Source: a virus (Duplodnaviria > Heunggongvirae > Uroviricota > Caudoviricetes). From it: a DNA stretch of 64,000 bases. The number at the start of each line of letters is the position of its first letter. Positions within the stretch are counted from its first letter, which is position 1. The DNA lies in the IMG/VR virus record IMGVR_UViG_3300012007_000010, positions 1 through 64,000 of that record; one strand, given 5' to 3'. Positions 2,373 to 59,288 of the stretch are shown here, piece after piece. The notes beneath the pieces are model-generated. The model did no database searches. It saw only the letters and a program-made list of their open reading frames with translations, and was not told the origin of the DNA. The translations under genes and the position numbers were made by a program.

Positions 2373-2732
2373 TCAGCCGTGCAGCTTCATGCCGTAGCGG
2401 TCGCGCATCAGTTTGTGCGCCCATTCGGGGATGCTGCTCTCGTCGTGCAGATGCTCGTGCATATAGTCCTCCAGCTCGCGGACGTAATGCTGCAGCAGAC
2501 TGGCGAACTCGGCCTCCGGCACGCAGCCGCCGTCGATGCCGAAGCGGCGCTGGATATACTTCACGTCGTTGGTAAACTTGCGATTGAGCACCATTTCTTC
2601 CTCGCCGCCGCCATGCACATAGACGATGGCGAAGATACGTGCCGCCGTGTCGCGGCTGATGTAGGGCAGGCCCACGCTCTCGAAAGCGGCGATGGTCTGC
2701 TCCTGCAGGGTATTGGCTTGTTCTCTGTTCAT
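2373..2732 (-). CDS. hypothetical protein (~119 aa); internal-Met start of the 391-aa ORF
   Basis: The N-terminal 270 aa of the 2373..3548 ORF is an Arg/Ala-rich GC artefact. The protein-like part begins at MNREQANTLQ. Its ATG overlaps the stop of the upstream gene (ATGA coupling). Confidence 0.45.
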   Translation of the reverse strand: MNREQANTLQEQTIAAFESVGLPYISRDTAARIFAIVYVHGGGEEEMVLNRKFTNDVKYIQRRFGIDGGCVPEAEFASLLQHYVRELEDYMHEHLHDESSIPEWAHKLMRDRYGMKLHG

Positions 2733-3619
2733 ATTGTCTTTCTGAATGTCTCGATGTCGTGTTTGAAATATCGCTGTAGAAACTGTATGCTCCGGCTGAC
2801 GCTGCAGCTGACCGTCGATAACGTGCAGCCCATGTCGCGGGCTATCTCTGAGGGTGTCTGTCCCTCCATGTAGCGGTGCAGGTAGGCTTGCCGCCGCTCG
2901 CCGGGCTGTATGTCGAACAGGCTGCGCTCGCATCGCGTCCTGTTGCTGTGCGGAAGCCAGTCCATTTCGTAGTGGGTCTCGCGCCACCGGCTGTGCTGCA
3001 GGTCGATGGCCCGCAGCCGACTCACCTTCATCCACAGCCCGATGAAGTCGTCGTCGGTGCGGATGGTCGGGTTGTGGCCGCTGGTGGTGATGTAAATGAA
3101 GGCTATCGACACCACGTCCTTGCAGTCGTCGAACGAGAGGCCGGTGGCGTAGTTCGTCGAGTAGCACACCTTCGAGAACTTCTGGCGGTAGATGTCCTTG
3201 CGGCTCTCCATCCGCTCCGTCCATTCGGGGTGCTGCTCCTGCTGCCGTGGGCGCAGGTTCTGCGGTCGCACGTCGTAGGGGTTGCCGTTCATGAACTCCA
3301 GCTCCACGTCGGGCTGCCATCGGTGCAGCGTGTAGGTGCAGTAGGTCAGCACTTGCAGCGGGAACCATGATTCGCGGTGGGGTGCGCTGCTCATGCGTGC
3401 CGCCTTGCCTCCCTTGTTGACCTGCACCTTTCGCGTCCTCGTGAGCCGTCGGCCCTGAATGGTCTGCATGCCGTAGAGGTCGCCCGTCTCGCTGACGTAG
3501 TAGGCGATGTTGCCTATCGTCTGGAAAGGCACGCGCTCCACCCTGCATCCGCTCCTGCGTCGCATCTCGTCGAGGGCCTGCGCCTCGGTGTCGCTGAAGA
3601 ATCCGTTACCTATGACCAT
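2729..3619 (-). CDS. putative HNH-like endonuclease / DNA-binding protein with C-terminal HTH (296 aa)
   Basis: LEFMNGNPYDVRPQNLR resembles the HNH_3/AP2-type motif (H.DGN..NNR.NLR). C-terminal GQTPSEIARDMGCTLSTVSCSVSR is a sigma-70-region-4-like HTH. The assignment is tentative. Confidence 0.4.
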   Translation of the reverse strand: MVIGNGFFSDTEAQALDEMRRRSGCRVERVPFQTIGNIAYYVSETGDLYGMQTIQGRRLTRTRKVQVNKGGKAARMSSAPHRESWFPLQVLTYCTYTLHRWQPDVELEFMNGNPYDVRPQNLRPRQQEQHPEWTERMESRKDIYRQKFSKVCYSTNYATGLSFDDCKDVVSIAFIYITTSGHNPTIRTDDDFIGLWMKVSRLRAIDLQHSRWRETHYEMDWLPHSNRTRCERSLFDIQPGERRQAYLHRYMEGQTPSEIARDMGCTLSTVSCSVSRSIQFLQRYFKHDIETFRKTI

Positions 3620-4788: not shown

Positions 4789-5265
4789 TTAGTCCTCCAG
4801 ATACCATTTCAGAATTTCCTCGTCGCTGTCGCGGAAGAGTCCTTTGTTGTCGAAGATGTTGCCGATTACTTCCACCTTGGTCAGGTCAAGGTCGTAGAAG
4901 CACTTGTTGATGAAGTTGCTGATGCCACTTCTCTCCGATGATTTGAGCACGAACAGCATGACTTGAAACATGCCGACGGCATCGCCTGTGTCGCAGAACA
5001 CGACGCCCATGTAGTTGTCGTTGCCGTCGTCGCAGAACGGGTAATCGTCGGAGCGCAGTATGTCGCCCTCGTAGATGTCGCGTCCGTTCTTGTCCTTCAG
5101 GCCAGTGAACTGGCCAACAGACTGCGAGACGACCTCGTTATTTCGATACAAACCTTTGCATTCAGTCGGGAATACGTAGCATCCGCCAATGTTATCATGA
5201 ACAAGGTCGCCATATTCCCATTCCCCGTTATCAATCCTTTGTCCTCTGAATTTGATTGTTCTCAT
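4789..5265 (-). CDS. YopX-family phage protein (158 aa)
   Basis: KFRGQ...GEW.YG, KDKNGRDIYEGDI and the C-terminal VIGNIFDN motifs are characteristic of the YopX domain. Confidence 0.7.
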   Translation of the reverse strand: MRTIKFRGQRIDNGEWEYGDLVHDNIGGCYVFPTECKGLYRNNEVVSQSVGQFTGLKDKNGRDIYEGDILRSDDYPFCDDGNDNYMGVVFCDTGDAVGMFQVMLFVLKSSERSGISNFINKCFYDLDLTKVEVIGNIFDNKGLFRDSDEEILKWYLED

Positions 5266-5335
5266 ATCGCTCTTTTTTTTGTATCGCCTGTCGGCGAGAA
5301 ATTGGTTAAAAGTGAATAGTGAATAATGAAGAATT
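5266..5335 (-). promoter_or_regulatory. early-gene upstream element copy
   Basis: Minus-strand ...ttttaaccaatttctcgccgacaggcgatacaaaaaaaagagcgatATG, upstream of the YopX gene. Confidence 0.35.
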
Positions 5336-5802: not shown

Positions 5803-6222
5803 TCAGCCTCTTGCTCCTTGCTCAGGCTTGGCCCAATCGAGGCCGTGGTCGTGGAGCAGGTCGTCGAGCTCGAAGAGTGATTTCTTGCCGCCGTCGCGGA
5901 ATCTCAGCCAGTCAGTCCTGTGGAGCTTGCAAAGGTCGCCCAGCGTGTCGATGTCGTTGGCGACACAGATTTTGATGGTGCGCACACTAAGCTCGCAGTC
6001 CGCAATCCGTTTGGCCTTGATGTTGGCTTTCGGGTCAGGCTCAGTCGCAATTACGCCGTGGTTGACATCGTCGGCTGCCAGTTTTTCCAGATAGTCGGCC
6101 ACGTCGCGGCAAAGGTCGGTTACACGGACTGCCCCCGTGTCGGCAGGTTTGTTCTCGTTCTCCTTGGCGCACTGGCGTAGTGCTGCTATCGCCTTGTGCT
6201 GTGTTTCTTTTGTGATTTCCAT
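5803..6222 (-). CDS. RNA polymerase alpha-subunit C-terminal-domain-like (HhH) protein (139 aa)
   Basis: C-terminal CELSVRTIKICVANDIDTLGDLCKLHRTDWLRFRDGGKKSLFELDDLLHDHGL aligns with bacterial RpoA alphaCTD ([53 protein letters not shown]). ELSVR, LGDL and GKKSL.E are conserved. Confidence 0.65.
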   Translation of the reverse strand: MEITKETQHKAIAALRQCAKENENKPADTGAVRVTDLCRDVADYLEKLAADDVNHGVIATEPDPKANIKAKRIADCELSVRTIKICVANDIDTLGDLCKLHRTDWLRFRDGGKKSLFELDDLLHDHGLDWAKPEQGARG

Positions 6223-6376
6223 ATCGCTCTTTTGTTTTTGTCATCGTCTCTTTCGAGCCGAGAAATTAGTTAAAAAATTCTTTTAGTCGGCTGCCGCCTT
6301 TGTAAAAGCGGCAAAGCCGAGCGGGGTTAAAAATTCTTTCAGTCGCTTCGCTTGGTGAAAGCGCTAAAGCGAGTCT
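6223..6376 (-). promoter_or_regulatory. two tandem early-gene upstream element copies
   Basis: Two GTTAAAAA(A)TTC cores (6276-6290 and 6326-6345), each followed by a GC hairpin. Confidence 0.35.
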
Positions 6377-9465: not shown

Positions 9466-10317
9466 TTACTTCCCCATCACTTTACTTACGTCGAGCATCA
9501 TGCCGTTGCCGCCTACTATCTGCGGCATTTTTCCATCCCACTTCTCAATCATATCCTCCTGGATAATCATCGGGCTCAAAGAGGCGGCAATGGTCTTGTT
9601 GTAATATGCCTCGGCATCTGCCTTGATGCGCATGGCGCGGGCGGCACCTTCAGCCTTGGCTACGTCGATCTTCGCGTTGGCTTCGGCTTCCTTGACTTGA
9701 TTCTCTGCCTTCAGGGCGGATTGTATGGCGGCGTTCTTAGCATCTATCATGCTCGTCAGCGAGGCAGGCGGGGTAATCTTCGACGTAAACTCCTCGACGA
9801 GGAAGCCCTCGGCCATCATCGACTTCTCCAGTCGGCTGCGCACGTCGCGCTCAAAGTTGGCACGGTTCGACATCAGCGAGTCCGAGGTATACTGGTTGGC
9901 GCAGGTGCGGTAAGCTTCGTAGATGCAGGTGCGGATGTAGCCGTCCTCCAGCGACTTCACATCGACGCGGTACTTCACGAAGATGTCGCACGCCTTGACC
10001 GGGTTGATGTGGTAGGCAATCGTTGGGTCCATCTCGAAGATGGAGGCATCCTTGGCGTTCACCTTGATGGTCTCATACTGCTTGCGCTGCGTGAATGTCG
10101 GGTAGGTGAACACGTCGGTGGTGATGGGGTTGTAGAACACCCAGCCCTTGCACGTGCCCTCCACGCCGCCGTAGTCTTGCTCGGAGGCCGACCACTTATG
10201 AAACTTGATGCCTACCTCGCCTGAGTCAACCACCGTGCAGCAGGCGAAGAAGATAATTAACACGAGCAGTACCGAGGCTGCCACGGCAATGAGCCGCTTG
10301 ATTGTTTTTTGATCCAT
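9466..10317 (-). CDS. SPFH/band-7 (prohibitin/HflKC/flotillin-like) domain membrane protein (283 aa)
   Basis: N-terminal TM (LIAVAASVLLVLIIFFACC) followed by SGEVGIKFHKW. The C-terminal Ala/Glu/Lys-rich coiled coil (AIQSALKAENQVKEAEANAKIDVAKAEGAARAMRIKADAEAYYNK) is typical of SPFH proteins. Confidence 0.7.
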   Translation of the reverse strand: MDQKTIKRLIAVAASVLLVLIIFFACCTVVDSGEVGIKFHKWSASEQDYGGVEGTCKGWVFYNPITTDVFTYPTFTQRKQYETIKVNAKDASIFEMDPTIAYHINPVKACDIFVKYRVDVKSLEDGYIRTCIYEAYRTCANQYTSDSLMSNRANFERDVRSRLEKSMMAEGFLVEEFTSKITPPASLTSMIDAKNAAIQSALKAENQVKEAEANAKIDVAKAEGAARAMRIKADAEAYYNKTIAASLSPMIIQEDMIEKWDGKMPQIVGGNGMMLDVSKVMGK

Positions 10318-10346
10318 AATCGTTGTTGTTTAAAATTGGTGAATAA

Positions 10347-10998: not shown

Positions 10999-11715
10999 TC
11001 ATTGCCGTAGGGTTTTTAGTGATTGCCAGGTGTACCAGGATGAGCGCGTTGCGTCGTAGATGGCATCGTGCTGAATGCCGTCGTATTGAGAGGGTAGGGG
11101 AGAGAAGAGGTCGTAGGCCTTGCGGGAGCCGGCGAGGACTTCCTGCGGAGATACCGCAGGCGACGGGACGGGGGTGCCGTCCTGCGTGAGGAACTCGGCG
11201 GCGGCTACGGCCTCCAGTTGCTGCCGGCAGGCCAGCTTGTAGGCGGCTTCGAGGATGATGGTTCGGCAGTCGCGCAGCTGGGTGTGGGGGATGATGCTCT
11301 CCAGGTCGATGTCGAAGCGACGGCAAAGGGAACGGAGGATGGCACAGTCTACGTCCATGCCGTGCGCCCAGAGGCAGATGCTCTCCAGCTTATGCTCCTC
11401 CACCAAGCGTCGGATGAAGTTGAGCGCACCCACGAGCACGTCGGCAATCGGTTCTGGCAGGTCGCGGCATACGGCCCGCTTCGCGTCGTCACTCCGTCGG
11501 CTCCACCAGTCGATGGTGGCGGGGTCGAAGTCCATGCCCTCCACCACGCAGGAACGGAGGTCAACATAGTTCACGAAAGGCTCTGCGTCGGCCTTGCTCA
11601 TAAACGGCTCCACGTCGGCATCGCGCAGCCAGGGCACGACGGCCACCTGCATGATGGCGGCATTATCCGAGAGCGAGCAGGTCTCAAAGTCGATGGTAAA
11701 ATCTAAGTGTTTCAT
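10999..11715 (-). CDS. DEDDh-type 3'-5' exonuclease (DnaQ/epsilon-like) (238 aa)
   Basis: Exo I motif FTIDFETCSL (D.E), Exo II WAHGMDVDCAIL, Exo III HDAIYDA (H....D). Confidence 0.7.
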   Translation of the reverse strand: MKHLDFTIDFETCSLSDNAAIMQVAVVPWLRDADVEPFMSKADAEPFVNYVDLRSCVVEGMDFDPATIDWWSRRSDDAKRAVCRDLPEPIADVLVGALNFIRRLVEEHKLESICLWAHGMDVDCAILRSLCRRFDIDLESIIPHTQLRDCRTIILEAAYKLACRQQLEAVAAAEFLTQDGTPVPSPAVSPQEVLAGSRKAYDLFSPLPSQYDGIQHDAIYDATRSSWYTWQSLKTLRQ

Positions 11716-12278: not shown

Positions 12279-12719
12279 TCATTTTTGTTCGCTATTGATG
12301 TTCTCGATGGTCAGCAGTATCTTCTGCATGGCATCCTCGATTTTCTCCATGCGCTTCTTGCGCTCTGTGAGGGCGGTGAGGATGACGTTCACGTTGCGCA
12401 CCAGGTCGCCGGCGTAATTACGGCTTAATTTCTCCTCGGCCTCACGGGCACGTTCCTTCAGTGCCTCCATTTCGCGCTTGTAGGCCTCCAATTTCCTGTG
12501 TTGTTCGGCAATGATTTCAAGGTCGGTAGCCTCGCCTGTGGCACAGGCGTGACGCTCTATCAGTTCGCAGCGGAACCACTCGTGGCCACCCTGCGGCATA
12601 CTGATGCGTACAGAGCGCGTGGGAAAGCATACGTTGTTCACGCGGCCCGTGATACCGCCGTCGATGGTGACGGTATCGTAGGGACGCCACACCTGTTGAA
12701 AAAATTCTTTCTCTGTCAT
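12279..12719 (-). CDS. hypothetical protein with coiled-coil C-terminus (146 aa)
   Basis: Protein-like ORF. Confidence 0.5.
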   Translation of the reverse strand: MTEKEFFQQVWRPYDTVTIDGGITGRVNNVCFPTRSVRISMPQGGHEWFRCELIERHACATGEATDLEIIAEQHRKLEAYKREMEALKERAREAEEKLSRNYAGDLVRNVNVILTALTERKKRMEKIEDAMQKILLTIENINSEQK

Positions 12720-12728: not shown

Positions 12729-12950
12729 TTATTTATTGTATCTGTATGAAATTCGCCCACGGGTGAGGTCGTAGGGCGAGAGCTCTACCTCCACGCGGTC
12801 GCCAACCATCACGCGGATATGATGCTGGCGGATTTTGCCAGAGAGGGAGGCGAGGATGGTGATGCCATTGTCTAACTCCACTCGGAAGTTATCGCGGCTC
12901 AGGTTCTCTACGACGCGGCCTTGTGCCTTAATCTGATCTTTTTTACCCAT
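12729..12950 (-). CDS. infA: translation initiation factor IF-1 homolog (73 aa)
   Basis: [70 protein letters not shown] aligns along its whole length with bacterial IF-1 (…[61 protein letters not shown]). Confidence 0.85.
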
Positions 12951-12992
12951 TGCTCTGTTTTACTATATTATTGACTATCAGACTGTTATTTA

Positions 12993-13451
12993 TCATAACA
13001 CCGATTCTAATACTTTCCCGGTCTGCGGTTTCTTGCGTCTCCGTTCCCGCTCATGCTGGCGGAAATCTGCGTCCTTCCAGTAGTGTCGCCGGCGCTTCTC
13101 TAAGTAGTTCTGATGTCGCCGCTCTCGGTCATGATCGAGGAACGGGCTGCAGAACTCCGGCATATCGTCGGCCATTTGTTGCAGTGTCTTGGTAGCCTCG
13201 CGCTGTGCCTTCGTCAGTGTGCCGAGAATGGGCAGCGCGGCCATGCACTCGCTGAGCAGCTGGCGGATGTTCGCCTGTCGGGTCTGCCGTAGCTTCGGCC
13301 ATTGCCGCCGACGCTTGCGCTCGCTCTCCACCGTGCGGTAGTATTTTCTCTTCATGCCTTCGCGGCTCTGGCCCTGATAGGTCCAAACGGCTTGACCTGT
13401 TACCTTGCTGTAACAGATGTAGCGATACTGAGGTGGACGACGTTGGTACAT
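12993..13451 (-). CDS. hypothetical highly basic protein (152 aa)
   Basis: R/K-rich ORF that abuts the primase gene. Confidence 0.45.
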   Translation of the reverse strand: MYQRRPPQYRYICYSKVTGQAVWTYQGQSREGMKRKYYRTVESERKRRRQWPKLRQTRQANIRQLLSECMAALPILGTLTKAQREATKTLQQMADDMPEFCSPFLDHDRERRHQNYLEKRRRHYWKDADFRQHERERRRKKPQTGKVLESVL

Positions 13452-13456: not shown

Positions 13457-16400
13457 TTATTCTTCATTATTCACTTTTTCTGGATCCTCCTTGGCCGCTG
13501 CCTGCACATAGCCCTCCTCATATTCCTTACCTACGGTGTAGGGATTGGCAGGGATGCCGCCGGGGCGGTTGCGGTAGAAGTAATGCACGAAGACGTGCTG
13601 AGAGAGTTCGCGGGGCACACGCTCGCCGGTCGATACCTCGCGGCGGTACTGGTTCTTGACGGTCTTTTCCACGGGCTTGCCACCAGCGTCGAGCACAGTG
13701 AGCCAGGCGCGGGCCTGACGGCCACCGTGACGTCGATACGAGGCGGTGGTCAGTACCACGTCAGGGTCCATCACGATGCCCATGCGGTTCAGGCAGGGCT
13801 TCAGGCTCTTGGCAATGCGCTTCTTCGCCTTCTCGATGGAGTCGAAGCAGACGCTCTCTCCCTCGCTGTCGAGCAGGCTGATAGCCATCTCCTGCGGCGC
13901 GATGGGCTGGCCGATGTGGGGGTTGTTCGGGATGTCCTCAAAGTACTGCACCAGCCAGTCGGTCAGTGCGCCGTCCTTGGTCATGGCGTAGAGCTCGCGG
14001 CGCAGGCTGCGTGTCTCGGTCGGCGGCAGGATGACCTCGCCGGGGTGCTGCAGATAGAACTGCGCACAGCATAGCAGGAGGTTGCGGGCCTCGTTGAGCA
14101 GGTGCATGGGCAGTCCGTTGGCTACCTCCTGCACACCATATTCCTCCTGAAACTCGTCGGTCGGTGTGAAGTCGAGCCAGCGTCCGTCGTCGGTGGCGGC
14201 ATGATAGTAGTCGGAGGTGAAGCAGGGATAGATACGCCCTTTCACTGAGCCGCCGGAGCGGTCGAAGGGTTTGTTGCTGGCGATGAATATCTTGGGCACG
14301 TCCTCGCCGCGCAGGGTGACGGGCTGCTTGTAGAGGGTCTTGATGACGATGGTGGTGCCGGTGTTGAACATATCCTCGAACTTGAAGTTGTCTGGCAACT
14401 CGTCAATGCAGACGAGCGAGTGGACTCCTGGCACCACGTTGCCCATCATCACCTCGATGGTGATGTTCTTCATCGACTTGCCTGCGATGTTGGCCGACGA
14501 CGGGCGCACCGTGGCCAACAGGTCGATGTCTGCGCTCTTGCCGTTGCGCCCGCTGGCTTTGTTCTCGTCGGTCACGCTGTAGTCGGTGATATGTACGGCC
14601 CGCTGCACGGCGCGGCTGCGGTGGCGCGTGAGGGCATAACCGAAGGCATGGACTTTGTTGATGAAGTGCATGTCCTGCATCTGGCGCTCGGTGGCCGTCA
14701 GCGTCTCGCCAAAACTTTGTTTCTCCCAGAAGATGCGCCCCTGGTTGTAGAGAAAGCGGAAGTGCATCGGCATCTGGTCGAGTGGCTTATCCATAATGAG
14801 CTGGTATTTCCACAGCTGCTCCCACTCCTTCCAACGGGTGTTCTCGGCTGCACGCATGGCGGGGGTCGAGCATTGGCGGCTGATGCCCTCGTGACGTTTC
14901 TTCTCGGCCTCGTATCTGGGGTTGACGATGATGCGCCACGGTTGCGGGATGGCCGTGAAGTCGCCCGGCATGATCAGCTCCTCGTTGGTCAGGTAGGGCA
15001 TCTGCTCGTAGCCTACGGTGACAATTTTTTCTTTGTTGACGAGCACGGCGGTGTTATCGAAAAAGAAGTAGTCGAAGTCATCGCCGTATGAGTGATCATT
15101 GATTGGAATCGACGGCATGGTGCTCAGTGTGCGCCCGTCGAGTCCCTTGCCGGTGAAGACGGCGTTCACGAGGTTGGCCTTGTATGGCGCGTCGGCCTCG
15201 CTGATGTGCGCGTCGAGCCAGTCGAGCATCGCCGTGCGGCTGACGCTCTCCAGCTGGTTGCCCGTGCGCCCGTTGTCGAGCAGGCGGTAGGTGTTCTTGT
15301 GCGTCAGCTGATAGAACATGCGCTGCCCCTGGTTGTTGGCATAGCAGCGTATGCCCTTCGCTTCCAAGAACTGCAGGAGGTTGGCCACGCTCAGCACGTA
15401 GCGCACGTTTGTCTCGCGGCTCTCACCGTCGCGGTTCTTCTTGGTGGTGGCTTTGTCTATCCAGAACTGCATCGTCAGGGCGTTGTCGAGCATGCGCATC
15501 AGTGCTGCACTTGGGTTGGCCTTGCGCAGGTCTGGGGCCAGCAACTTCTGAATCTGCGGAAAATGCGTCACGAAGTCGGTGACGTCCTTCAGGGGCTTCG
15601 GCAATTTCGGAGTACTCTGACTATTCTGAGAGCTCTGAGAACTCTGAACCACCTGCTCCATCTCCCTCGGCAGCCGAACCCAATGCACGTTGGCATTCTC
15701 AAGGGCAATGCTGCTGCTACTGCTGATGCCCGTCGCATCGAGGTCGTAGCAAACATATATATTACAGGCCACCGTCTGCATGCGGCAGAGCAGCATCTGC
15801 AGCCATTCTTCCACCACGCCTTCGTGTATGCCAGACGTCTCGCTGTTGAGCCACAGCACATGAGCATCGGTGGCAGCCCACATCTGCATCGCGTCGCGCG
15901 GACCGGAGCACAGCACCAGTCGCTTCATCTTGTAGTAGGTATTCTTCTCGCCGTTCTCCTCGCGCATCAGCTTCACGAGCGGGTGACGCGGGTCTTTCAT
16001 CACGTCCATCCACCAGGGGCGGTCGGCGTTGCCGTCGCCCGTCGTGTGCTCAGCGGTTTTTCCGCCGACGGTCATCTGCCTCAGTGCCGCTACCGCTACG
16101 CTGTCACCATACGCCTTCGTCGCCACACCCTCCTTTTTGTCCCAGTACCACTTCGTCCTGCCGCTGGCTTTCGGCTCATACTTCTTCACGCCCCAGTCGT
16201 AGGTAAAGACGAATATGGGGTAAGACGGACGGGCATGTACCTCCAGTGAGCAATGACCGCCCTGTTTGGCATCCACCGGCCCAGTGATGAACGTCGCCAC
16301 GGGGAACACGGAGAACTCGCGCTCCAGCACTTCGCCCCATTCCTGGGCGGTCTTGGTTCCTCCCCTGCCCCGCCAGTAGTTGCGGTCGAGCGAGCAGCGG

Positions 16401-16999
16401 TACAGCGGCAGGCCACTATCAGGGTCGAACTCCGTCACCATGTCGCCTATCTGAATCTCGGCACGGTCGGCATCGTCGGTCTCTTCCCCACCCTGCTTTA
16501 TTTTCTCCACGTCCCCCTGCTCGGCTTTGCGCCTTGCCAGCTCCACCTTGAATCCCAGCGCACGCAGGTGCTGTTCCGTCCAGGGTGTCAGGTCGAACTC
16601 GCACTCCTGAGGTTTGACAGCCTGTGTGTGCTGCTCCGGCGTGGTCGGTGCCACACCGCTTAGCTCTATGCCGTGGTCGTCAACAAGTCGCTGCAGCACT
16701 TCCCCCATTTGTTTGTTGGTCAGTGCCGTGTGGTCGTAGCCCAGTAGCGCGGCCTGCAGCGAGATAGCGCCGTAGCCGCGTCGCCCGCATTTACCGTAGC
16801 ATATCCAGCCCGAAGAGTCGGCACCGCCATCGACGCTCTGGTCCACCTTGAACGACGGTGTCCTGTCGTTGTGGTCGGGGAACGGACAGTAGTACGTCGC
16901 CTTACCCTTCTTCGGCAGATGGTAAGGCTCATATCCATTCTCGCGCATCACATCAACAAGCGAGATGTTCTTCAGTATCTTGATGTCTTCTTTTGTCAC
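13457..16999 (-). CDS. DNA primase-helicase (1180 aa)
   Basis: N-terminal CHC2-type zinc finger (YYCPFPDHNDRTPSFKVD...CYGKCG) as in DnaG/phage primases. C-terminal NTPase segment with a Walker-A-like GRNGKS and Walker B LVCIDELPD (SF3/D5-like). Confidence 0.8.
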   Translation of the reverse strand: MTKEDIKILKNISLVDVMRENGYEPYHLPKKGKATYYCPFPDHNDRTPSFKVDQSVDGGADSSGWICYGKCGRRGYGAISLQAALLGYDHTALTNKQMGEVLQRLVDDHGIELSGVAPTTPEQHTQAVKPQECEFDLTPWTEQHLRALGFKVELARRKAEQGDVEKIKQGGEETDDADRAEIQIGDMVTEFDPDSGLPLYRCSLDRNYWRGRGGTKTAQEWGEVLEREFSVFPVATFITGPVDAKQGGHCSLEVHARPSYPIFVFTYDWGVKKYEPKASGRTKWYWDKKEGVATKAYGDSVAVAALRQMTVGGKTAEHTTGDGNADRPWWMDVMKDPRHPLVKLMREENGEKNTYYKMKRLVLCSGPRDAMQMWAATDAHVLWLNSETSGIHEGVVEEWLQMLLCRMQTVACNIYVCYDLDATGISSSSSIALENANVHWVRLPREMEQVVQSSQSSQNSQSTPKLPKPLKDVTDFVTHFPQIQKLLAPDLRKANPSAALMRMLDNALTMQFWIDKATTKKNRDGESRETNVRYVLSVANLLQFLEAKGIRCYANNQGQRMFYQLTHKNTYRLLDNGRTGNQLESVSRTAMLDWLDAHISEADAPYKANLVNAVFTGKGLDGRTLSTMPSIPINDHSYGDDFDYFFFDNTAVLVNKEKIVTVGYEQMPYLTNEELIMPGDFTAIPQPWRIIVNPRYEAEKKRHEGISRQCSTPAMRAAENTRWKEWEQLWKYQLIMDKPLDQMPMHFRFLYNQGRIFWEKQSFGETLTATERQMQDMHFINKVHAFGYALTRHRSRAVQRAVHITDYSVTDENKASGRNGKSADIDLLATVRPSSANIAGKSMKNITIEVMMGNVVPGVHSLVCIDELPDNFKFEDMFNTGTTIVIKTLYKQPVTLRGEDVPKIFIASNKPFDRSGGSVKGRIYPCFTSDYYHAATDDGRWLDFTPTDEFQEEYGVQEVANGLPMHLLNEARNLLLCCAQFYLQHPGEVILPPTETRSLRRELYAMTKDGALTDWLVQYFEDIPNNPHIGQPIAPQEMAISLLDSEGESVCFDSIEKAKKRIAKSLKPCLNRMGIVMDPDVVLTTASYRRHGGRQARAWLTVLDAGGKPVEKTVKNQYRREVSTGERVPRELSQHVFVHYFYRNRPGGIPANPYTVGKEYEEGYVQAAAKEDPEKVNNEE

Positions 17000-17792: not shown

Positions 17793-18323
17793 ATGACAAC
17801 AACTGAGATTTTCCTGAAGATGGTGTATTGGCTTGTGGACAATACCGAGATGAAGAACCCTACCGCAGTGGCTCGCAAGGCTGGTATCAATGCAGCAAAC
17901 GTAACTAAGATTAAGACTGGCAAGAACAAGTCGGTGCAGTACGAAACAATGGTGAAGCTGAACAATGCGTTCGGAAATGTATTCAATCCCGAATGGATGC
18001 GCGGCAAGAGCGACGTGATGCTGATGGCAGACGTTGCTCCACTTTGCTCGGATAAGCAGAATAGTTTTCCTAACAGTGATTCAGTAACAATCACCGCCCT
18101 CCTCGCCGCCAAGGACGAGACCATCGCCTCACTGAAGCGCGAACTCGCCGCCAAGGATGATGTCATTGCCGCAAAGGACGGCATCATCAGCACGAAGAAC
18201 AAGCTAATTGACACCCTCCAACAACAGAACGATGACCTGCGAATGCAAGTCGCCTCGGGAAAGGGGTTCCGCTCTGGCCATTCCCCTTCGGCAGCTGCTG
18301 AACGCGAGCCCGCTCACCCATGA
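17793..18323 (+). CDS. XRE-family HTH transcriptional regulator, repressor-like (176 aa)
   Basis: N-terminal HTH (NPTAVARKAGINAANVTKIKTGKNKSVQYETMVKLNNAF) followed by a coiled-coil dimerisation-like region. Transcribed divergently from the early operon. Confidence 0.6.
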   Translation: MTTTEIFLKMVYWLVDNTEMKNPTAVARKAGINAANVTKIKTGKNKSVQYETMVKLNNAFGNVFNPEWMRGKSDVMLMADVAPLCSDKQNSFPNSDSVTITALLAAKDETIASLKRELAAKDDVIAAKDGIISTKNKLIDTLQQQNDDLRMQVASGKGFRSGHSPSAAAEREPAHP

Positions 18324-18466
18324 TTATTGGACACGTAAGGGACCGCTACCTCATGGCGGTCTTTTTCTTCTACGCAAAGAAGAAATCGCCTCGACTGCTT
18401 GGCGGTTCGCAATATTATGCTTATCTTTGCCACCGCTACGACAAACTTTTAAAAAAGCTACACACA

Positions 18467-19264
18467 ATGAAACAGGTATTATTCATGGTAGTGATTGCCG
18501 CAGGCATGCTGCTGGCAGGTTGCTCGAAAGACGAAAGTGACATGGGAACTATAAACAATACGGAACAGCAGACGCTGACAAAGGAGCAGATAGTAGGCGT
18601 GTGGCGTAGCGGCGACTACTGGGTGTCGTTCTCGGAGGATGGGTTTATGTGTGGTTATCTCAGCGAGAAGTGTATTTCAATGGGATATTACGATATTTCC
18701 GAGAAAGATATTGTCGTTACAGATAACTTTTGCGAGAACAACATGACAACATTCAATATTCTATCTGTTTCGGCTGACTCGTTTAGCTGCAATGTCAAGT
18801 GCAGTGAGATTGAAGTACAATCGCTAACTGTTGCAGAAGAGCTGGTCTACAAAGAAATTATTTCTAATAAAGAAGCTCAATTAGAAATGACATTTGTCAA
18901 AACGGCGGAAATTCCGACGATACAGGATAATTCAATTACAGGAAAGTCTTTTGAATATTATTGTAATTATACCTACATGTATGGCCAAAAGCCATCTGTT
19001 AGGTGTCTTAATAAGGGGAAAATTGATAAGAATGGTACAATTTTGAGAGAGATTACAAAACTCTCAGACGAGGGTGCTCTTCAAAGACCGTTTACGGTAC
19101 ACATGGAGGACCGCTATGTTTTACTATTACCATACATCTATTTTATAGAACTGCACAATGACGAGGACTATAATACAGATATCTCTTTCTTTGAATTAAA
19201 CACATACACAGTACAGAGAAGAAAAGTGACTTTTGTCTCTAATGAAAGTGTTTTGTTAGAATAG
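18467..19264 (+). CDS. lipoprotein, low-GC moron (265 aa from the internal Met)
   Basis: MKQVLFMVVIAAGMLLAGCSKDE is a signal peptide plus LAGC lipobox. The gene body is ~40% GC against ~58% in the flanks. The ORF-track start at 18320 lies upstream of the signal peptide. Confidence 0.65.
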   Translation: MKQVLFMVVIAAGMLLAGCSKDESDMGTINNTEQQTLTKEQIVGVWRSGDYWVSFSEDGFMCGYLSEKCISMGYYDISEKDIVVTDNFCENNMTTFNILSVSADSFSCNVKCSEIEVQSLTVAEELVYKEIISNKEAQLEMTFVKTAEIPTIQDNSITGKSFEYYCNYTYMYGQKPSVRCLNKGKIDKNGTILREITKLSDEGALQRPFTVHMEDRYVLLLPYIYFIELHNDEDYNTDISFFELNTYTVQRRKVTFVSNESVLLE

Positions 19265-19283
19265 AGAGTCAGAAGAATTATTC

Positions 19284-22200
19284 TTACTCTGCGACGGCCA
19301 TCTTAGCATTAACTTCCAATTCCCAAGCAACCCCCTCGTAATGATATCCGTCAGATTCATTCATATATGGTTTGCACACCAGCGAAAACATATAACCAGG
19401 TAATACCAGTCTGTCATTACCTGCAAAAACAACCACTCTGTACTCACTATTATTGTAAATAATCATACGATTCCCAATAAGAGATCTTGCTTCATCTAAT
19501 TGGTCCTCAGTGTATCCAGCACTTCTCGGAGTGAAACTTGGTAGTTCAAATATAACAGGACCTTGTAATCTTTCAAACTCTAAAAATGTTCCTGATTTTA
19601 TTATATCTATAACATTGGTAACTCCAGAATCAAGAGAGGTAATGGCATATTGATCAATATTATCTGCGGTTATAACCGTTTTTCTTTTTCTTAATACACC
19701 GCTAAATTCTCCGCTTGTGGCATGTACCTCACCGCGTATATACGCATCATTCTGATACGTCTTTCCCGTGAGCAGGTTGACGGCATAGTGAGGGATGAAG
19801 TTGTGGTGGTCGGCACCCCATTGGCTACCGTCCGACTGCGGCTTGCCTGCGTGATCCTCGTTGGGATAGGCAGGGTCGAACCAGAAGTAAGTGGGCTTTG
19901 TCTCGCTGCCGTTGGTATATGTGGCAGGGTCTGTGTACTTTCCTTCGTAAGCAGTGCCGTTGATGGTGCCATGCACGGAGATGAGCCAGTCGCCGCTGAC
20001 GACGGCTGCACCGAACTGCGCGAAATCGGCAAAGAGATAGCGGGCGCGGACGAGGTTGTACTGGCTCATGCCCAGCACCCAAACGGGTTTCCCGTCAATC
20101 ACGATGCCATCGGTGGGGCCGATGGCACTCTGTGCGGTGCCGTCTGGCCAGTTGCTCTCAGCATTGAGGTAGTAGATGTCGGTGGTATCGTTGGTGCCGC
20201 TCACCTCCACGGCCACCGTCTGACTGTCGTTGCTGGTATATTCTACGTCTTCACGATATTCGCCGGCCATGTAGCATAGCTTACCCATTGCGCCGACGGC
20301 TCCAGTCAGGCAGATGTAGGAGGTCTTGTCGTTCACGCCTGCTGCCGTGTAGTGCATGATGCGCTCCCAAACGTAGGGGTGTGTTGGCTTCGGGTCGGGA
20401 GCCGACTGGAGCCAGCGCACGCCGTTCACCTGATAGAGATCGCCGTCGGCATGGCTGGTGCGGCTTCGGCTCAGAGCATAGGCATGCTCGTTGTAGGGGG
20501 CATTGTCGCCCTTCAGGTCGTCCTCATGTGCCATGTAGGCCGTAGCCACGCGGCCTTCTTCCAACTTGGGCATGCAGATGCAGGCGATAGAATGATTGCC
20601 TGTGCCGCTGTCGAAGGCCTGGTAGAATTGCAGATTGAGTGTCTCGGTGCTTATGCTGTTGTTAGTCAAGAAAGTGATGGTATGCCGTTTTCCATCCCAG
20701 TCGCCTGTAATCAGAACGTCATTAAATCCGTCATTGCTTACCTGATAATCCTCGCCATCAAGTATCACCTTTAAATCGTTGCCGAAAATGTTGGTACGAG
20801 TTCCGTCGAATAGGTTAAGAAAAGAGACGACAAGCCGCCCTCCGCCATTCGCAAGAAAGGCGTTAAACGACAATGTGTACCAAGTGTTGGCTTTTAACTT
20901 ACCTATCAGATTCTGGGAAATACTCGTATCTGCCCCGTTGTCCTTAGCGTTCAGCCGGATTGACTTCCGCCCGTTGACAACTGTGTCGGAATTGGTGTCG
21001 ATTGTGACATAGGTATCGCTGTTACTGTACCATGCCTCCAACACGAAAGGCATGCCACGATCGAAGATGGTGCGCAACAGGATGTTCGTATTGACCTCCT
21101 GCGCATCGTCGCCCTTTGGACCGGTGTCGCCGTCCTTAACGACTGTTATCTGCGGTGCTTCCTTCAGGACGGCACCTTCGCCGTCAACGAGTCTCAGTGC
21201 GATGCCGTCGGCGGCTGTGCGTACAGATGCAGCCGGGATGCCATACGCCATTCTAAGCATACCGTCTTCCTCGACTCTTAACCTCTCGCAGCTCCTCCAT
21301 GCTTTCCCGTCAATGCTGAATTTGACTTCATGCGCCGGGCTTCCGTCTAAATGCGCAATAAACAATATTTCTGTCCGCTTAGCCCCCGTGATAGAGAAAG
21401 CCCTGACTTCGATGTCGCCCGTCTCAATCGTCCCGTCGGCCTTGGCGTTGATGACACTTACACTTGTAACAATGTCATAAGTGACGGCATCCTCGGCATA
21501 GCGGTTGTGAATGACGGGTGCGTGGAATGTGCCCCAGCGGTGGTTCTCGTCGTCGTAGTCGCGCCAAGACTCCCACTCCACGTCGCCCGGCTTCGACACG
21601 CCCGTAGGGTCGTCGCTCCAGCCGGAGGGCACAAAGTCGTCAACAAGCAGGCAGTTGTCCACGCCGTCGGTCTGTCCGCTGACAGCCGTTCCGCCAGCCG
21701 TACCGGTGGTGGCATCGTAGCCTGTGTTGCTGTTTAGGCGGTAGATCCATTCGCGTATCTTCGAGTCCTCTCCATCGCGGACGAAGGCGATGGTGGCGCG
21801 AGAGAGTTCCTTCTCTGCTACAGTCTTGCCGTCGGCAGTGATGCGGCGCATGAGCCTCACGTTCACGCTCTGTTGTAAGGCAAAAGCCGTCGTAGCGATG
21901 TTGGCCGTGGCAGCTTCCTGCGATGAATCGCTGAAGGTGAGCTTCGTCCACTGAGTTGAGCCGACGGGAGCATATTCAGCCTCGAGCGAGGCATTGGCTA
22001 TCTGCCCCAGCGTCATGTCGAACACCTCGCCGCGCTGGTCGGTGCCCCGTATGCCCACGTTTACGCCGCCGTCAGGGCTGTAGTTCTGCGTCTGTGGATC
22101 ATAGCTGACGATAGTCTCTGACAGCGACAACTCATATTTCTCAATGGTTTCAGCCAGAATGGTGATAATGGATGATTTAAGTATAAGGTATGGAGGAAGA

Positions 22201-23212: not shown

Positions 23213-26200
23213 ATGGGACATTTAGCACTGGAAGTATTCGATTTGCCAACTAATGAGAATCCGAAGCCGACGGGCAGTAAGTATGCTGTGCTGTCAGAGA
23301 ACGCGAGTATCACCATCACCGACACGTCGGAGATATTCGGAAGTGGTGATGTTTGGTCATTTCCGTTCAAGCTTAACGTCAATGCCAATGCGCACATCTT
23401 CGGCACGGCGGGCGAGACGCACGGCTCGCGGCTGCACGAGCAGATAGATAAGCGCCGCGCCCGGCTATGGGTGGATGGCCTGCCGCTCTATCTCGGTTAT
23501 CTGAAACTCGGCGACGAAGCGGATGTGGACGCGAGTGGCGACGTGGATGTCAGCTTAGAGGCGGGAAGAAAAACTTTCGACGAGATGATAGAAGGGGCGA
23601 GTGCAAGAGATGTGAGCGTCGGCGACGTGGTGATAGGCGTGGCTCTGAACAGGAAACGCGTCATAACAATTAGTGACATTAACGTGAAATTTCGGCTCAA
23701 GAACTTACCTATAGACGATGTTAACGTAAGAAACGCCGTTGAAAGTTATATTTTCGAGCTCTCGGCAGGGGATTACGAATATCATTCCGCTCTTTCGCAT
23801 AGATGGCCAAAATTGGTGCTGTCAAAAGGCGAACTGACAGACTACACATCTGGAACAGGGGTTCCCGTTTCTTTTAATAAGACCAACATACAAAATCCTT
23901 ATGATGATAGTCACCCGTTTTGCAATGTCAACGTATGCTATCAGCGTAAACGGCAGAATGCGGATCTTAGTGAGACTACATTGCGCGACTATGTTATGCG
24001 ACTTGCCTATGGAAATGACACAACTACTGGTGGCGATGGACAAACACGTTTCAATAATGCACCAAATTTCTATCTTCTCTATTGGTTGAAGCGACTGTTC
24101 ATGGACCTTCATATTCAAGTCGTAGAAAATCAGATGCTCAACGTAGAAGACTTCCGACATGTATTTCTTGCCAATCTTGGCTGTTTTTACGAAGAGATGG
24201 ATAATGACAACGATACGACGGACAACTACTCGCAAGATAGTGCCGAATGGAAGAGGTATGGGAAATATTCCTTCCCTGATAGTTTTATTCTTGACCCAGA
24301 CAAGATATTTGCAGATGAACCAGGAAAAATCTATGTAAACAGCATTGATATAGAATCCGATATGTTTACTGAACATTTCCACGGAACTTATCATGGACAA
24401 ACGGGAGAGGTCACAGAAGTAACACAAACAATAAGGACAGAACCTATTAATGGATATCTTGCCTACGCAACAGGCGAGAATTATCCAAATGTGGAAATCT
24501 CGGAGATCATCGAGGCAACGGAGTCCGCATTTGGAGTAAGATTTCTTTTCAACAATGATTTCTCAGAAGTGCGCATAGTCCTGATAAGGAATATCTTAAC
24601 AAACAGAGCTGTAAAGGATTTGGACTGCGACATTATCGAAGAAACAAAAATAGAGAATAATATACGTGGGTTTAAGATGACTTACGGCCAAGGGAAAAGC
24701 AATGTTTCTTATTTTTACAAAGGGTTCGATGATATGCTCCCGAAGAAAAAAGTAATCTGGAAAGACAAAAGTGACAAACATGACTACTCGAATTGGAATC
24801 TAACTGCAAACTACAATGATGTAATAAACAATGTAACCGCTTTCGATAAGACATGCTATGTGACGCCGGATAACGGAAACGCATACGGCATAATGATTGA
24901 TGAAAAAGAAGATGTCTTTTTCCCCGCTGTCTTTGAATTTGCAGGATTCATGGATGCCTGCGATGGAGACTGTACTGAAGAAGGCACTACCATAGACACA
25001 AAGACGATCAATGCAACGCCTCTTATACCTAATAATATTAATGGTGATTATGCGGTTTTCTTTAATGGAGAGATGAAAGCACCTGGTGGGAAACATGAAG
25101 TAGCGGCCATGATTCCAATTAAATCTGTTGAATTAATACATGGATATAAACGTGTTTATAAAGGAACTGAACCCAGTGGCTGGGTTTCATTATGGGATGG
25201 TTACTATTTAGACTTGAAAAACGTAGAGATATATGTTAAAGAGGGATATTCATTGTCCCTCATGGATAACTATAGTTTCACAGGCAACGAAGGTACTCCA
25301 TTCGACAATGCCGACTTAGGGCTAAGCTTTGGGGTTATGCGTAGAGACGGAAGGAACTCTTCAATCATAAGCTATGAAGATCTGATCGAGGGAGAGGGAA
25401 ACTTTAACTGGGAGGTATCTCCGGACGGTGGTGCTATCATTCATCCCGATACCTGCGACAGTTATGGCAATGAATGGTATTATCACCCTGAGGAATCAGC
25501 AACAACTCTCACCGTCACAAGTCGAGAGGATGCTGTAAGGCTGTTAGAAAAAATGTTCCCAAGACGCAATGCACAATTTTATACGCCAGAACGAGGATAT
25601 ATAACCGGCTGTAATACACATGAATTATATGACTATGATGCTAATAGGGCATTCTATGCGATTACAGCCTGGTATCAATATTATCCCGTTACAGATCAAG
25701 ATATGGCAGATTGGTTATGGGAGATCACAATACTAAATAAAGATACACCGTTCTTTGCAATAAGAAGCATTGAAGCAGCCTATGAAGAAGATCGGAAACG
25801 GTGTAACATACTATTGGATTGTGGCTATGATGTTGATATTTCCCCAGGAAGAATAAAAACCATAGAAGATCTATTTAGAAAAGCCTATGGTCCTGATTCA
25901 CAAGAAGAGCATCCCATCATCATCGACAACGGTATAAGTGCGAGGTACGGGCGATTCTCACTCAAGCTACGGGCAGAGAAGCTGAACCCGTATTTCGACC
26001 CTTCTTTGCCAGATATCATTTCCACTAAAGATGCTGCAGGAAGAGCGATGAAAAGCATTTTCATAACAGCAAACACAGATTTGCTTTCTCGGCCAAGGAT
26101 CAGTGGCGCTGAGATGAAAGCTGCTGGATGGAACGATTTTGCCGATGGTGACTATGCCACGCTGTACAGTACGAGCTATTCGGTTTATTATGATACAGGT

Positions 26201-26704
26201 AAGGTGCATGAAATACTTTTTACCCCTATTCGCGAGGATGGAACGGTGCTTTCGCCAAGTCAACTCCAGAATTACGCTGTCGGATTTAATGGGCTGTCGG
26301 CTCATTCTATAGCTGCCAATGACACACAACATCTGGTACTCGACATAGACACTAATGACTCACGGGCGGAAATTCTGCATCAGCTTCAGGCAATCTATTA
26401 TGCCGCAGATGGAGAAATAGTTCCTACAGTAGATATAGGTAACACACGATATCTTAGTATCACTAATCCGAATCTGCGCAATCGTGGACTTTGCGATCAG
26501 TTCTACAAAGAATACTCATACTTGATACGTAATGGCCGTATTTGTAGAAAAAAGGTACGAATGGAGCTGGCTGTTCTGCTTTCCATAGACAAGACAAATC
26601 TTTATTGCGTCGGTGATATAACTGGATATATCCGCAAGATACAGTACACAGTAAGCAACAATACAGGACTTAATGATGTGACATTGGATATTATATATAT
26701 TTAA
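23213..26704 (+). CDS. large tail fibre-like protein (1163 aa) with a low-GC C-terminal ~1000 aa
   Basis: Long ORF. GC drops sharply from ~55% to ~40% at ~23650. The embedded antisense ORFs are AT-frame artefacts. Confidence 0.65.
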   Translation: MGHLALEVFDLPTNENPKPTGSKYAVLSENASITITDTSEIFGSGDVWSFPFKLNVNANAHIFGTAGETHGSRLHEQIDKRRARLWVDGLPLYLGYLKLGDEADVDASGDVDVSLEAGRKTFDEMIEGASARDVSVGDVVIGVALNRKRVITISDINVKFRLKNLPIDDVNVRNAVESYIFELSAGDYEYHSALSHRWPKLVLSKGELTDYTSGTGVPVSFNKTNIQNPYDDSHPFCNVNVCYQRKRQNADLSETTLRDYVMRLAYGNDTTTGGDGQTRFNNAPNFYLLYWLKRLFMDLHIQVVENQMLNVEDFRHVFLANLGCFYEEMDNDNDTTDNYSQDSAEWKRYGKYSFPDSFILDPDKIFADEPGKIYVNSIDIESDMFTEHFHGTYHGQTGEVTEVTQTIRTEPINGYLAYATGENYPNVEISEIIEATESAFGVRFLFNNDFSEVRIVLIRNILTNRAVKDLDCDIIEETKIENNIRGFKMTYGQGKSNVSYFYKGFDDMLPKKKVIWKDKSDKHDYSNWNLTANYNDVINNVTAFDKTCYVTPDNGNAYGIMIDEKEDVFFPAVFEFAGFMDACDGDCTEEGTTIDTKTINATPLIPNNINGDYAVFFNGEMKAPGGKHEVAAMIPIKSVELIHGYKRVYKGTEPSGWVSLWDGYYLDLKNVEIYVKEGYSLSLMDNYSFTGNEGTPFDNADLGLSFGVMRRDGRNSSIISYEDLIEGEGNFNWEVSPDGGAIIHPDTCDSYGNEWYYHPEESATTLTVTSREDAVRLLEKMFPRRNAQFYTPERGYITGCNTHELYDYDANRAFYAITAWYQYYPVTDQDMADWLWEITILNKDTPFFAIRSIEAAYEEDRKRCNILLDCGYDVDISPGRIKTIEDLFRKAYGPDSQEEHPIIIDNGISARYGRFSLKLRAEKLNPYFDPSLPDIISTKDAAGRAMKSIFITANTDLLSRPRISGAEMKAAGWNDFADGDYATLYSTSYSVYYDTGKVHEILFTPIREDGTVLSPSQLQNYAVGFNGLSAHSIAANDTQHLVLDIDTNDSRAEILHQLQAIYYAADGEIVPTVDIGNTRYLSITNPNLRNRGLCDQFYKEYSYLIRNGRICRKKVRMELAVLLSIDKTNLYCVGDITGYIRKIQYTVSNNTGLNDVTLDIIYI

Positions 26705-29438: not shown

Positions 29439-29468
29439 TAAAAATAACAACACAAACAAAAAACGATT

Positions 29469-33201: not shown

Positions 33202-33259
33202 AAATTGTCTAAACGTATCATATTGGAATGACTTATAGTTTTCTTATCTGTTTAAAAAA

Positions 33260-41818: not shown

Positions 41819-41870
41819 AATCGTAAAATATTAAATTTTGTGTTTGTGTTGGTTGTTTCTTGTTCAGTAT

Positions 41871-59255: not shown

Positions 59256-59288
59256 AATCGTATGTTGTGTTTTTGCGTTGTCCTTATA

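Follow-up and report, generated by a model that had tools for sequence, protein, structure and literature searches.

The gene at positions 12729–12950 of the window (the whole 64-kb stretch of viral DNA analysed here) raises the question of whether a phage of moderate size can carry a working translation initiation factor and, if it does, what that factor would do during infection. The locus had been predicted from its sequence to encode a homologue of bacterial IF-1 (InfA), and the prediction implied that such a gene on a phage would be new. Phage-borne IF-1 is already known, however. Genes for IF1 and IF3 occur in huge phages, where their suggested role is to strengthen or redirect the translation of the host (PMC7162821), IF1 is encoded by the Lak megaphages of Prevotella (10.1101/356790), and IF-1 is a core gene of the Jug phages of Bacteroides and Phocaeicola (PMC12363816). 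The implied novelty was therefore overstated; what is new is a smaller phage family and a distinct clade of IF-1 within it, rather than a new type of system.

The accompanying remark that translation factors of this kind are uncommon in phages of this size is borne out by the collection of phage genomes in INPHARED, where an IF-1 match was returned by tblastn for 36 of 50,697 records. Among these, the complete genomes that are annotated and name a host span 167–552 kb (Lak, 540–552 kb; Phosso, 469 kb; DAC/SJC, 167–179 kb), further matches come from two metagenomic records of uncultured phages (484 and 595 kb), and the remainder are unannotated or fragmentary, with several of the IF-1-like matches being short unannotated fragments that look like host contamination. 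Where a host is stated, 21 of 22 IF-1-carrying phages infect Bacteroidota, an excess that may be meaningful or may be due to sampling. In the literature searched, no report connects IF-1 with a rumen or Prevotella phage of comparable size. The family described here extends the range of phage-borne IF-1 from genomes of at least 167 kb, mostly above 360 kb, down to abundant phages of 95–145 kb from ruminant and gut samples, whose hosts are probably Bacteroidota.

An IF-1 homologue encoded by a phage

The coding sequence lies on the minus strand, which the original prediction had left unstated, and runs from an ATG start to a TAA stop to give a protein of 73 amino acids, with neither a frameshift nor an internal stop in the ORF. 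The peptide quoted with the prediction corresponds exactly to residues 10–70, and the gene is the single IF-1-like sequence within the window. Its product is an IF-1 homologue along its whole length, including the OB-fold core, as had been claimed. The NCBIfam infA equivalog TIGR00008 is matched over profile positions 1–69 of 69 (E = 1.6e-30; 104.9 bits, cutoff 61.15), and PF01176 over positions 2–64 of 64 (E = 7.9e-23) at 80.3 bits, far above the gathering score of 30.2, while 12 matches to chains of solved bacterial IF-1 structures range from E = 3e-23 to 1e-10. A different S1-like OB-fold family was rejected as the identity of the protein. The S1 domain and RsgA_N models remain below threshold (19.3 bits against a cutoff of 22 and 25.3 bits against 27), whereas the infA equivalog scores 44 bits above its own cutoff, and no other OB-fold family rises above cutoff in the Pfam scan. 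The models for aIF1A/eIF1A reach 13–17 bits against cutoffs above 100. Within PHROGs the protein falls only into an unnamed family, phrog_30201.

The phage nature of the locus, also part of the prediction, is evident from the content of the window, which holds an S49 head-maturation protease (PHROG 53, 126 bits), a 4187-aa ORF with weak similarity to tape-measure proteins, a complete diversity-generating retroelement (DGR) and a c4-2 phage-type sRNA, and in which no bacterial housekeeping genes were seen. Relatives of the window are IMG/VR viral contigs of 95–145 kb. A metagenomic scaffold of 138,214 bp (ENA ERZ28658117) codes for an identical IF-1 protein, and the genome carrying this IF-1 is a phage of roughly 138 kb. 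When 10 kb around the gene was compared with INPHARED by megablast there was no match, so the phage has no close cultured relative in that collection. Among the other products of this phage are a sigma region-4 protein and an RNA polymerase alpha-CTD-like protein. A search for tRNA and tmRNA genes came back empty, so that nothing in the window points to a broader translation module.

Several indirect lines of evidence bear on the host. Among cultured phages, those with the nearest relatives of the protease and of the primase-like protein encoded close to infA have Polaribacter, Bacteroides, Flavobacterium and Porphyromonas as hosts, some database copies of this IF-1 are binned as 'MAG: Prevotella sp.', and the translation start regions of the phage are of the Bacteroidia type. 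For these reasons the host is probably a member of the Bacteroidota, and probably Prevotella. A single-protein scan of GTDB genomes turned up a single phage-type copy, which lies in a Prevotella MAG, and the remaining matches were ordinary IF-1 proteins of CPR and other bacteria that were picked up through the word VGDRVEVE; no bacterial donor emerged from the scan, and the Prevotella MAG copy is weak evidence of host. Record names such as 'Tb.RUG' and the sample set, with names as the only guide to source, point to ruminant gut material.

The assignment of infA to an early or replication module also holds. The gene stands fifth among the ORFs of a leftward operon in which a 63-aa ORF and a 102-aa ORF are followed by a 1180-aa primase-like protein, a 152-aa basic ORF, infA, a 146-aa ORF, a small HTH ORF, an HNH-like ORF and an exonuclease. 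This operon adjoins a divergent Cro/CI-type HTH gene (17793–18323, plus strand; PF13443 HTH_26, 22.8 bits against a gathering score of 22), and the switch of orientation at that gene forms its upstream boundary. The primase-like replication protein (13457–16999, minus strand) starts the replication block; it has a weak CHC2 zinc-finger match, and its gene gives a tblastn match (E = 1e-22) to a 'DNA primase/TOPRIM' gene of Polaribacter phage Leef_1. Between this gene and infA lies the 152-aa basic ORF (12993–13451, minus strand), a constant neighbour of infA that has no match in Pfam or PHROG and no assigned function. On the downstream side, the 146-aa ORF (12279–12719, minus strand) shows a sub-threshold coiled-coil-type match only and is swapped for other small ORFs in some relatives, and the 238-aa exonuclease (10999–11715, minus strand) matches PHROG 255 at 87.6 bits, its syntenic counterparts in relatives being Rv2179c-like. 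Since no terminator-like site was found on the minus strand from 17 kb to infA, we infer that infA is co-transcribed with the replication genes. Its place in an operon with a primase-like protein and an exonuclease, beside a Cro/CI-type regulator, suggests that it is probably made early. A sigma-70 promoter scan was set aside as promoter evidence because it is not meaningful for Bacteroidota promoters.

The arrangement is not peculiar to the window. The order of primase-like gene, ORF of 152–161 aa, IF-1 and exonuclease recurs in contigs of 72–138 kb from several independent samples, the 152–161-aa ORF standing between the primase-like gene and infA in relatives L008–L013 and L028–L031. IF-1 lies within 6 kb downstream of the primase-like gene in 7 of 10 IMG/VR relatives of that protein; for the other three (L039–L041) no IF-1 was found in the stretch fetched around the primase gene, so that the gene is common in this phage family, perhaps not universal, and may be dispensable. 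In two relatives the primase is 87% identical and the IF-1 only 70%, which indicates that IF-1 either diverges faster or is exchanged between phages.

Fold, ribosome contacts and a rebuilt loop

An AlphaFold2 model of the protein, built with 54 homologues, has a mean pLDDT of 87.7 and places strands at residues 7–18, 21–26, 31–36, 52–57 and 64–71, with a short helix (38–42) between strands 3 and 4. The predicted structure is a single-domain, five-stranded OB barrel with a short beta3-beta4 helix, as in IF-1. The top Foldseek matches of the model are 4ql5, 3i4o, 9fco and 1hr0 (TM 0.88–0.97, rmsd 0.7–1.5 Å), so that the best structures are IF-1 of S. pneumoniae, M. tuberculosis, E. coli and T. 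thermophilus, with aIF1A/eIF1A and RsgA far behind. The archaeal-type and eukaryotic-type factors aIF1A/eIF1A share the Pfam family and the OB core of the window protein (Foldseek TM 0.80–0.84 to the predicted model), but are only 17–30% identical to it and possess N- and C-terminal tails that it lacks. Bacterial IF-1 (TIGR00008/PF01176; 1HR0, 4QL5, 3I4O, 9FCO) resembles it in length (about 72 aa), barrel and contact residues at 51–63% identity; it differs in being encoded in a ribosomal cluster rather than a phage replication operon, and in bearing a P/S-N-A/T-M loop where the window protein has S-R-D-N.

The contacts through which IF1 is held on the small subunit have been described for T. 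thermophilus, where Ala16, Pro18, Ala20, Arg23, Arg41, Arg46 and Arg64 meet helix 44, Lys2, Tyr35, Gly38, Lys39, Met42 and Arg66 meet the 530 loop, and Tyr60, Asp61 and Arg64 meet uS12 (bioRxiv 10.1101/2023.10.27.564398; PMC10913371). In E. coli, Arg69 of IF1 is essential for 30S binding (PMC4611024). The numbering of the published IF1 coincides with that of the window protein, as judged from matching identities at positions 23, 38, 39, 41, 46, 60, 61, 64 and 66, and E. coli Arg69 aligns with column 70 (R70); the E. coli IF-1 reference is approximate, its last three residues probably being wrong, and alignment columns 1–71 only were used. Residues R23, G38, K39, R41, R46, Y60, D61, R64, R66 and R70 are all present in the window protein, and these ten are 92–100% conserved among 121 clade sequences if a K/R exchange at 39 and an R/H exchange at 64 are counted. 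With the OB fold of IF-1 and the gripping residues both kept, the A site on the 30S subunit of the host is the most likely binding place of the phage protein, which would hold on to helix 44, the 530 loop and uS12 through its retained basic and aromatic residues.

The tip of the beta1-beta2 loop, which in bacterial IF-1 reaches into the helix-44 minor groove (bioRxiv 10.1101/2023.10.27.564398; PMC10913371), has been rebuilt. Bacterial P/S18-N19-A/T20-M/T21 becomes S18-R19-D20-N21 in the window protein, the conserved bacterial motif is absent, and the variants within the clade are SRDN, GYEN and GGDR. Position 20 is acidic (Asp or Glu) in 119 of the 120 cluster representatives of the clade, and Tyr44 is replaced by His in 96% of the clade, the window protein included. 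Other differences between the clade and bacterial IF-1 are His30 to Ile/Val, His/Tyr35 to Ser/Thr and Glu8 to Lys, position 35 being Tyr in T. thermophilus IF-1 and His in the other references (bioRxiv 10.1101/2023.10.27.564398). The clade-specific changes sit in the loop with which IF-1 pries the decoding centre open and, with the loop remodelled and the contact residues Pro18, Ala20 and Tyr/His35 altered in the window protein, canonical 30S binding is not guaranteed.

Variation at these positions is also found in bacteria. The IF-1 proteins of CPR bacteria are variable at 19, 21 and 44, two CPR sequences vary at 30 as well, and position 30 of T. thermophilus IF-1 is Pro. The change of His30 to Ile was accordingly dropped as a phage-only signature, and the safest markers of the clade are the acidic residue 20 and His44. 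Because CPR proteins vary at loop positions, the altered loop weakens the case for IF-1 membership without excluding it. The IF-1 proteins of related phages accommodate insertions of 13 and 26 aa that keep the reading frame. The literature yielded nothing usable on IF1 His29 mutants.

Selection and the origin of the phage clade

Comparison of the window gene with its relatives by the Nei-Gojobori method, on 60 aligned codons and with dS of 0.35–0.86, gives dN/dS values of 0.06–0.14 for L001, L002, L003, L008 and L011 and of 0.24 for L004, which indicates that phage infA is under purifying selection. Its codon usage is like that of the neighbouring phage genes and unlike that of low-GC islands. 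The phage IF-1 evolves much faster than the host copy, the Bacteroidales host IF-1 being 94–100% conserved (the query for the host type was confirmed at 100% identity). The Bacteroidales infA locus (L042) consists of a secY-map-infA-rpmJ-rpsM-rpsK-rpsD-rpoA cluster, whereas the window gene stands outside any ribosomal-protein cluster, between the primase-like gene and the exonuclease and with no flanking ribosomal-protein genes, and its product is 53–54% identical to Bacteroidales host IF-1. A host chromosomal infA orthologue was rejected as its identity on both grounds. Identity is 58% to IF-1 of S. pneumoniae and S. aureus, 63% to that of M. tuberculosis, and 49–51% to the phage proteins of Lak-C1, DAC16 and Phosso.

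A phylogeny against host infA had been suggested as a check on the prediction. In a neighbour-joining tree of 65 columns, 120 database relatives form one clade that contains no bacterial or other-phage reference and stands apart from the bacterial sequences, with a bootstrap support of 66%, or 55% when the bacterial-like member P0119 is included. Bacteroidales appears as the sister of this clade in only 5% of bootstraps, and recent capture from a Bacteroidales host was rejected on this tree position and on the 53–54% identity. In 43% of replicates the sister taxa include DAC16, and common ancestry with the DAC16 IF-1-like protein is possible on this sequence evidence. The tree gives the clade 66% support and singles out no sister group or donor lineage. 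The result is the definition of a distinct and populous clade of IF-1, with at least 120 cluster representatives, that is still listed under 'unknown function' in PHROGs (phrog_30201).

The clade can be set against the other phage-borne factors. Those of huge phages (Lak, 540–552 kb; phages >200 kb; Jug, 360–402 kb; Sinorhizobium phage Phosso, 469 kb) are likewise encoded by phages, several of them on Bacteroidota, but their genomes are much larger than the 138 kb or so of the window phage and the 95–145 kb of its relatives. The IF-1 proteins of Lak-C1 and Phosso, at 49–51% identity, do not group with the window protein, keep Tyr44 and have no acidic residue 20; the loops of Lak-C1 and DAC16 IF-1 are also non-canonical, with Tyr44 kept. 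The B. thetaiotaomicron phages DAC16/19/20/22/23 and SJC03 (167–179 kb) encode an unrecognised IF-1 homologue, annotated in DAC16 as a 'hypothetical protein' (DAC16_4). The DAC16 ORF likewise has an altered loop, GNGTF, and no His30, and its N terminus bears a basic extension of the kind seen in some relatives of the window protein. The DAC protein is 44–49% identical to the window protein and retains Tyr44, SPYDL is degraded to SVYDL, and its gene lies at the genome end rather than beside a primase gene.

Translation start regions and the role of the factor

The start of infA is preceded by a 42-nt intergenic leader, TAAATAACAGTCTGATAGTCAATAATATAGTAAAACAGAGCA (12951–12992, minus strand), which runs directly into the ATG, is A-rich and has no Shine-Dalgarno (SD) motif. 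It is nearly identical in the close relatives L001, L030 and L011, and it fits the pattern seen across the window. Over the 30 nt upstream of the start in 45 likely genes, A makes up 46% of positions against 20–24% genome-wide, an SD-like 4-mer occurs in only 5 of the 45 leaders, and adenine peaks at -3 (73%), -6 (67%) and -13 (67%). Host mRNAs of Bacteroidia are enriched in A at -3, -6, -12 and -13 (PMC7797042), and Bacteroidia ribosomes keep the anti-SD sequestered and take no notice of SD sequences (PMC7797042; PMC13000457; PMC9976891). Three of these four positions (-3, -6 and -13) are enriched in the phage leaders, the host side of the comparison being the published positions, so that the leaders mark a Bacteroidia host rather than a phage-specific signal. 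The proposal that a phage IF-1 might bias initiation toward the SD-less, A-rich leaders of the phage was thus right in its description of the leaders, but the pattern is the normal one for Bacteroidia and lends nothing to a bias toward phage messages. Two start-proximal motifs of phage genes, AGAGCRAT-ATG, which occurs 8 times against 2.1 expected, and ACGATT-ATG, which occurs 5 times against 0.36 expected, are candidates for phage-specific signals. Translation initiation regions of the phage include ones with AGAGCGAT-ATG.

On balance we think it probable that the gene encodes a genuine, working phage IF-1 that binds the A site of the host 30S subunit, works with host IF2 and IF3 and sustains initiation during infection. 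Expressed early and co-transcribed with the replication genes, as its position in the operon suggests, the factor would cooperate with IF2 and IF3 of the host, and the benefit to the phage would be that the supply of initiation-competent 30S complexes is kept up or raised while the host is taken over. Remodelling at the tip of the helix-44 loop, together with the replacement of Tyr44 by His, would then alter the kinetics of binding rather than abolish function. If the phage IF-1 merely supplements that of the host, it represents one more auxiliary gene.

A more ambitious role, which we regard as unlikely and which sharpens the bias first proposed for this gene, is that the phage IF-1 displaces host IF-1 and, through its altered loop and His44, shifts the choice of start sites or mRNAs so that phage messages gain or host messages lose. 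The non-conservative changes that run through the clade fall exactly at the helix-44 loop (acidic residue 20 in 119/120, Y44H in 96%), AGAGCRAT-ATG and ACGATT-ATG are over-represented at phage starts, and the alpha-CTD-like and sigma region-4 proteins suggest a broad takeover of host gene expression. A precedent of sorts is provided by cold-shocked E. coli, where raised IF1 and IF3 contribute to translational bias (PMC6511846). The phage leaders, however, carry the general determinants of Bacteroidia (A at -3, -6 and -13, few SD) and reveal no phage-specific discriminator, and no contact of IF-1 with the mRNA leader appears in the passages of the published accounts that describe its contacts (PMC10913371; bioRxiv 10.1101/2023.10.27.564398). 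An extension of the same idea would have phages of SD-blind Bacteroidota acquire IF-1 repeatedly (Lak, Jug, DAC/SJC and this family), with the acidic loop and His44 of the present clade altering the conformation of the decoding centre or the residence time of IF1 in favour of phage messages; this we consider quite unlikely. Were the phage IF-1 to change the choice of mRNAs, this would amount to a takeover of translation of a new kind, with a viral initiation factor redirecting the ribosome and not just topping up supply.

It is similarly improbable that the protein works away from the ribosome, as an S1-like OB protein that binds and melts phage transcripts in the manner of a cold-shock protein. 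E. coli IF1 has reported RNA chaperone activity, which counts for this possibility, as do the position of the gene among genes of DNA and RNA metabolism, the weak, sub-threshold similarity to S1 and RsgA_N, and the generic nature of the OB fold as a nucleic-acid-binding fold (PMC4611024). Yet the clade conserves the contacts with helix 44, the 530 loop and uS12 (Tyr60, Asp61), none of which a generic chaperone needs, and it is the infA equivalog that the protein exceeds by 44 bits and the S1 model whose cutoff it fails to reach. That the gene is a neutral passenger or an assembly artefact, host DNA captured or mis-assembled and with no role in the phage, is effectively excluded. The label 'MAG: Prevotella sp.' on some database copies and the resemblance of several INPHARED matches to host contamination might be read in that sense, but a protein 53–54% identical to Bacteroidales IF-1, in a separate neighbour-joining clade with Bacteroidales as sister in 5% of bootstraps, is not a stray host sequence, and the gene keeps the same phage order in many independent samples, is under strong purifying selection and, unlike the host copy, has no ribosomal-protein genes at its flanks.

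The preferred reading, that of a working IF-1, lends itself to experiment, as a protein of 73 aa and an existing Flavobacterium in-vitro initiation system make it easy to test, and the clade offers a handle on the part of IF-1 in SD-independent initiation and on its tuning by viruses. A parallel in strategy is phage bS21 of huge phages and Bacteroidota phages, another small, host-like component of 30S initiation borne by phages whose Bacteroidia hosts are SD-blind (PMC7162821; PMC9723584), although bS21 is unrelated to IF-1 and binds the platform and the anti-SD pocket rather than the A site.

IF-1 homologues outside this phage

An IF-1 homologue is also present in cultured phages of Bacteroides thetaiotaomicron, where its sole annotation is "hypothetical protein". 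In Bacteroides phage DAC16 it is gene DAC16_4 (locus L025, 627-932), and corresponding ORFs occur in DAC19, DAC20, DAC22, DAC23 and SJC03. Taking the DAC/SJC phages together with the huge phages Lak and Jug, Bacteroidota are the hosts of most IF-1-bearing phage genomes for which a host is stated. The representative protein P0119, an IF-1 encoded at 6001-6222 of L023, a 52 kb Logan contig (ERR11637157), has a loop of bacterial type, GNAMF, and retains Tyr44. Its neighbors are non-ribosomal, comprising IMPDH-like, metallophosphatase, nucleoside deoxyribosyltransferase, YqeY and OmpA genes, and P0119 may be a further mobile-element or phage copy of IF-1, lying between the bacterial and phage types.

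Insertions and extensions in the phage IF-1 clade

A basic insertion of 26 amino acids (78 nt, in-frame) follows codon 8 of IF-1 in 18 of the 120 clade representatives, P0002, P0003 and P0015 among others, with example loci at L001 7858-8169, L003 7881-8204 and L030 10001-10300. The 78-nt segment is bordered on both sides by the 8-nt direct repeat ATYAAGGC. The window IF-1 is without this insertion, and the carriers include phages whose IF-1 core is 96-97% identical to the window protein. Another insertion, of 13 amino acids (CSAEGRLLPAGRK), occupies the β2-β3 turn in 10 representatives (P0012, P0023, P0032, P0040, P0043, P0048, P0052, P0057, P0060 and P0072). An arginine/lysine-rich N-terminal extension of ~15-35 amino acids is found in 17 representatives, with cases at loci L004 and L014 and among proteins P0088-P0120; these extensions recall the ones reported on phage bS21 (PMC7162821).

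Transcription genes and start-codon contexts

The leftward gene block that holds infA also encodes two proteins related to transcription. One, of 139 aa, has an RNA polymerase alpha C-terminal domain (5803-6222, minus strand; PF03118, 32.2 bits vs 23.8); the other, of 296 aa, contains sigma-70 region 4 (2729-3619, minus strand; PF08281, 28.8 bits vs 25.7; PHROG 1740, sigma factor). Their presence in the same block as infA suggests that the phage takes over transcription besides translation.

Two motifs recur window-wide directly 5′ of start codons. AGAGCRAT-ATG is observed 8 times against 2.1 expected (for example at 1302-1312, 2306-2316, 5263-5273, 6220-6230 and 62555-62565), and ACGATT-ATG 5 times against 0.36 expected (10315-10323, 29463-29471, 41816-41824, 59253-59261 and 61601-61609). 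Both may be phage-specific translation signals, or may reflect a start context of host type.

Other features of the window

GC content falls to 0.44 at 18000-20000 and 0.40 at 24000-26000, compared with roughly 56% for the genome. The island ORFs (18320-19264 and 23213-26704, both plus strand), one of which spans 1163 amino acids, have a GC3 of 0.42-0.44 and atypical codon usage (0.37-0.38, vs 0.57-0.73 for other genes), and may be recent acquisitions. A single ORF of 4187 amino acids (46692-59255, minus strand) gives weak matches to tape-measure proteins (PHROGs 167, 4211 and 4704), and no Pfam domain was found in it; if it is the tape measure, the tail would be exceptionally long.

The window also contains a complete diversity-generating retroelement, in which a 129-nt template repeat (33079-33207) precedes the reverse transcriptase gene (33260-34573, plus strand; PHROG 1423, 89.6 bits), and the variable repeat (32195-32323) lies at the 3′ end of a 444-aa ORF (30998-32332). 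The two repeats are 85% identical, with template adenines accounting for nearly all mismatches. A c4-2 RNA lies at 63127-63204 on the plus strand (Rfam RF02944, 47.4 bits; gathering score 41). Its family of small RNAs is a member of the c4 clan; c4 antisense RNAs are immunity RNAs of phages P1 and P7.
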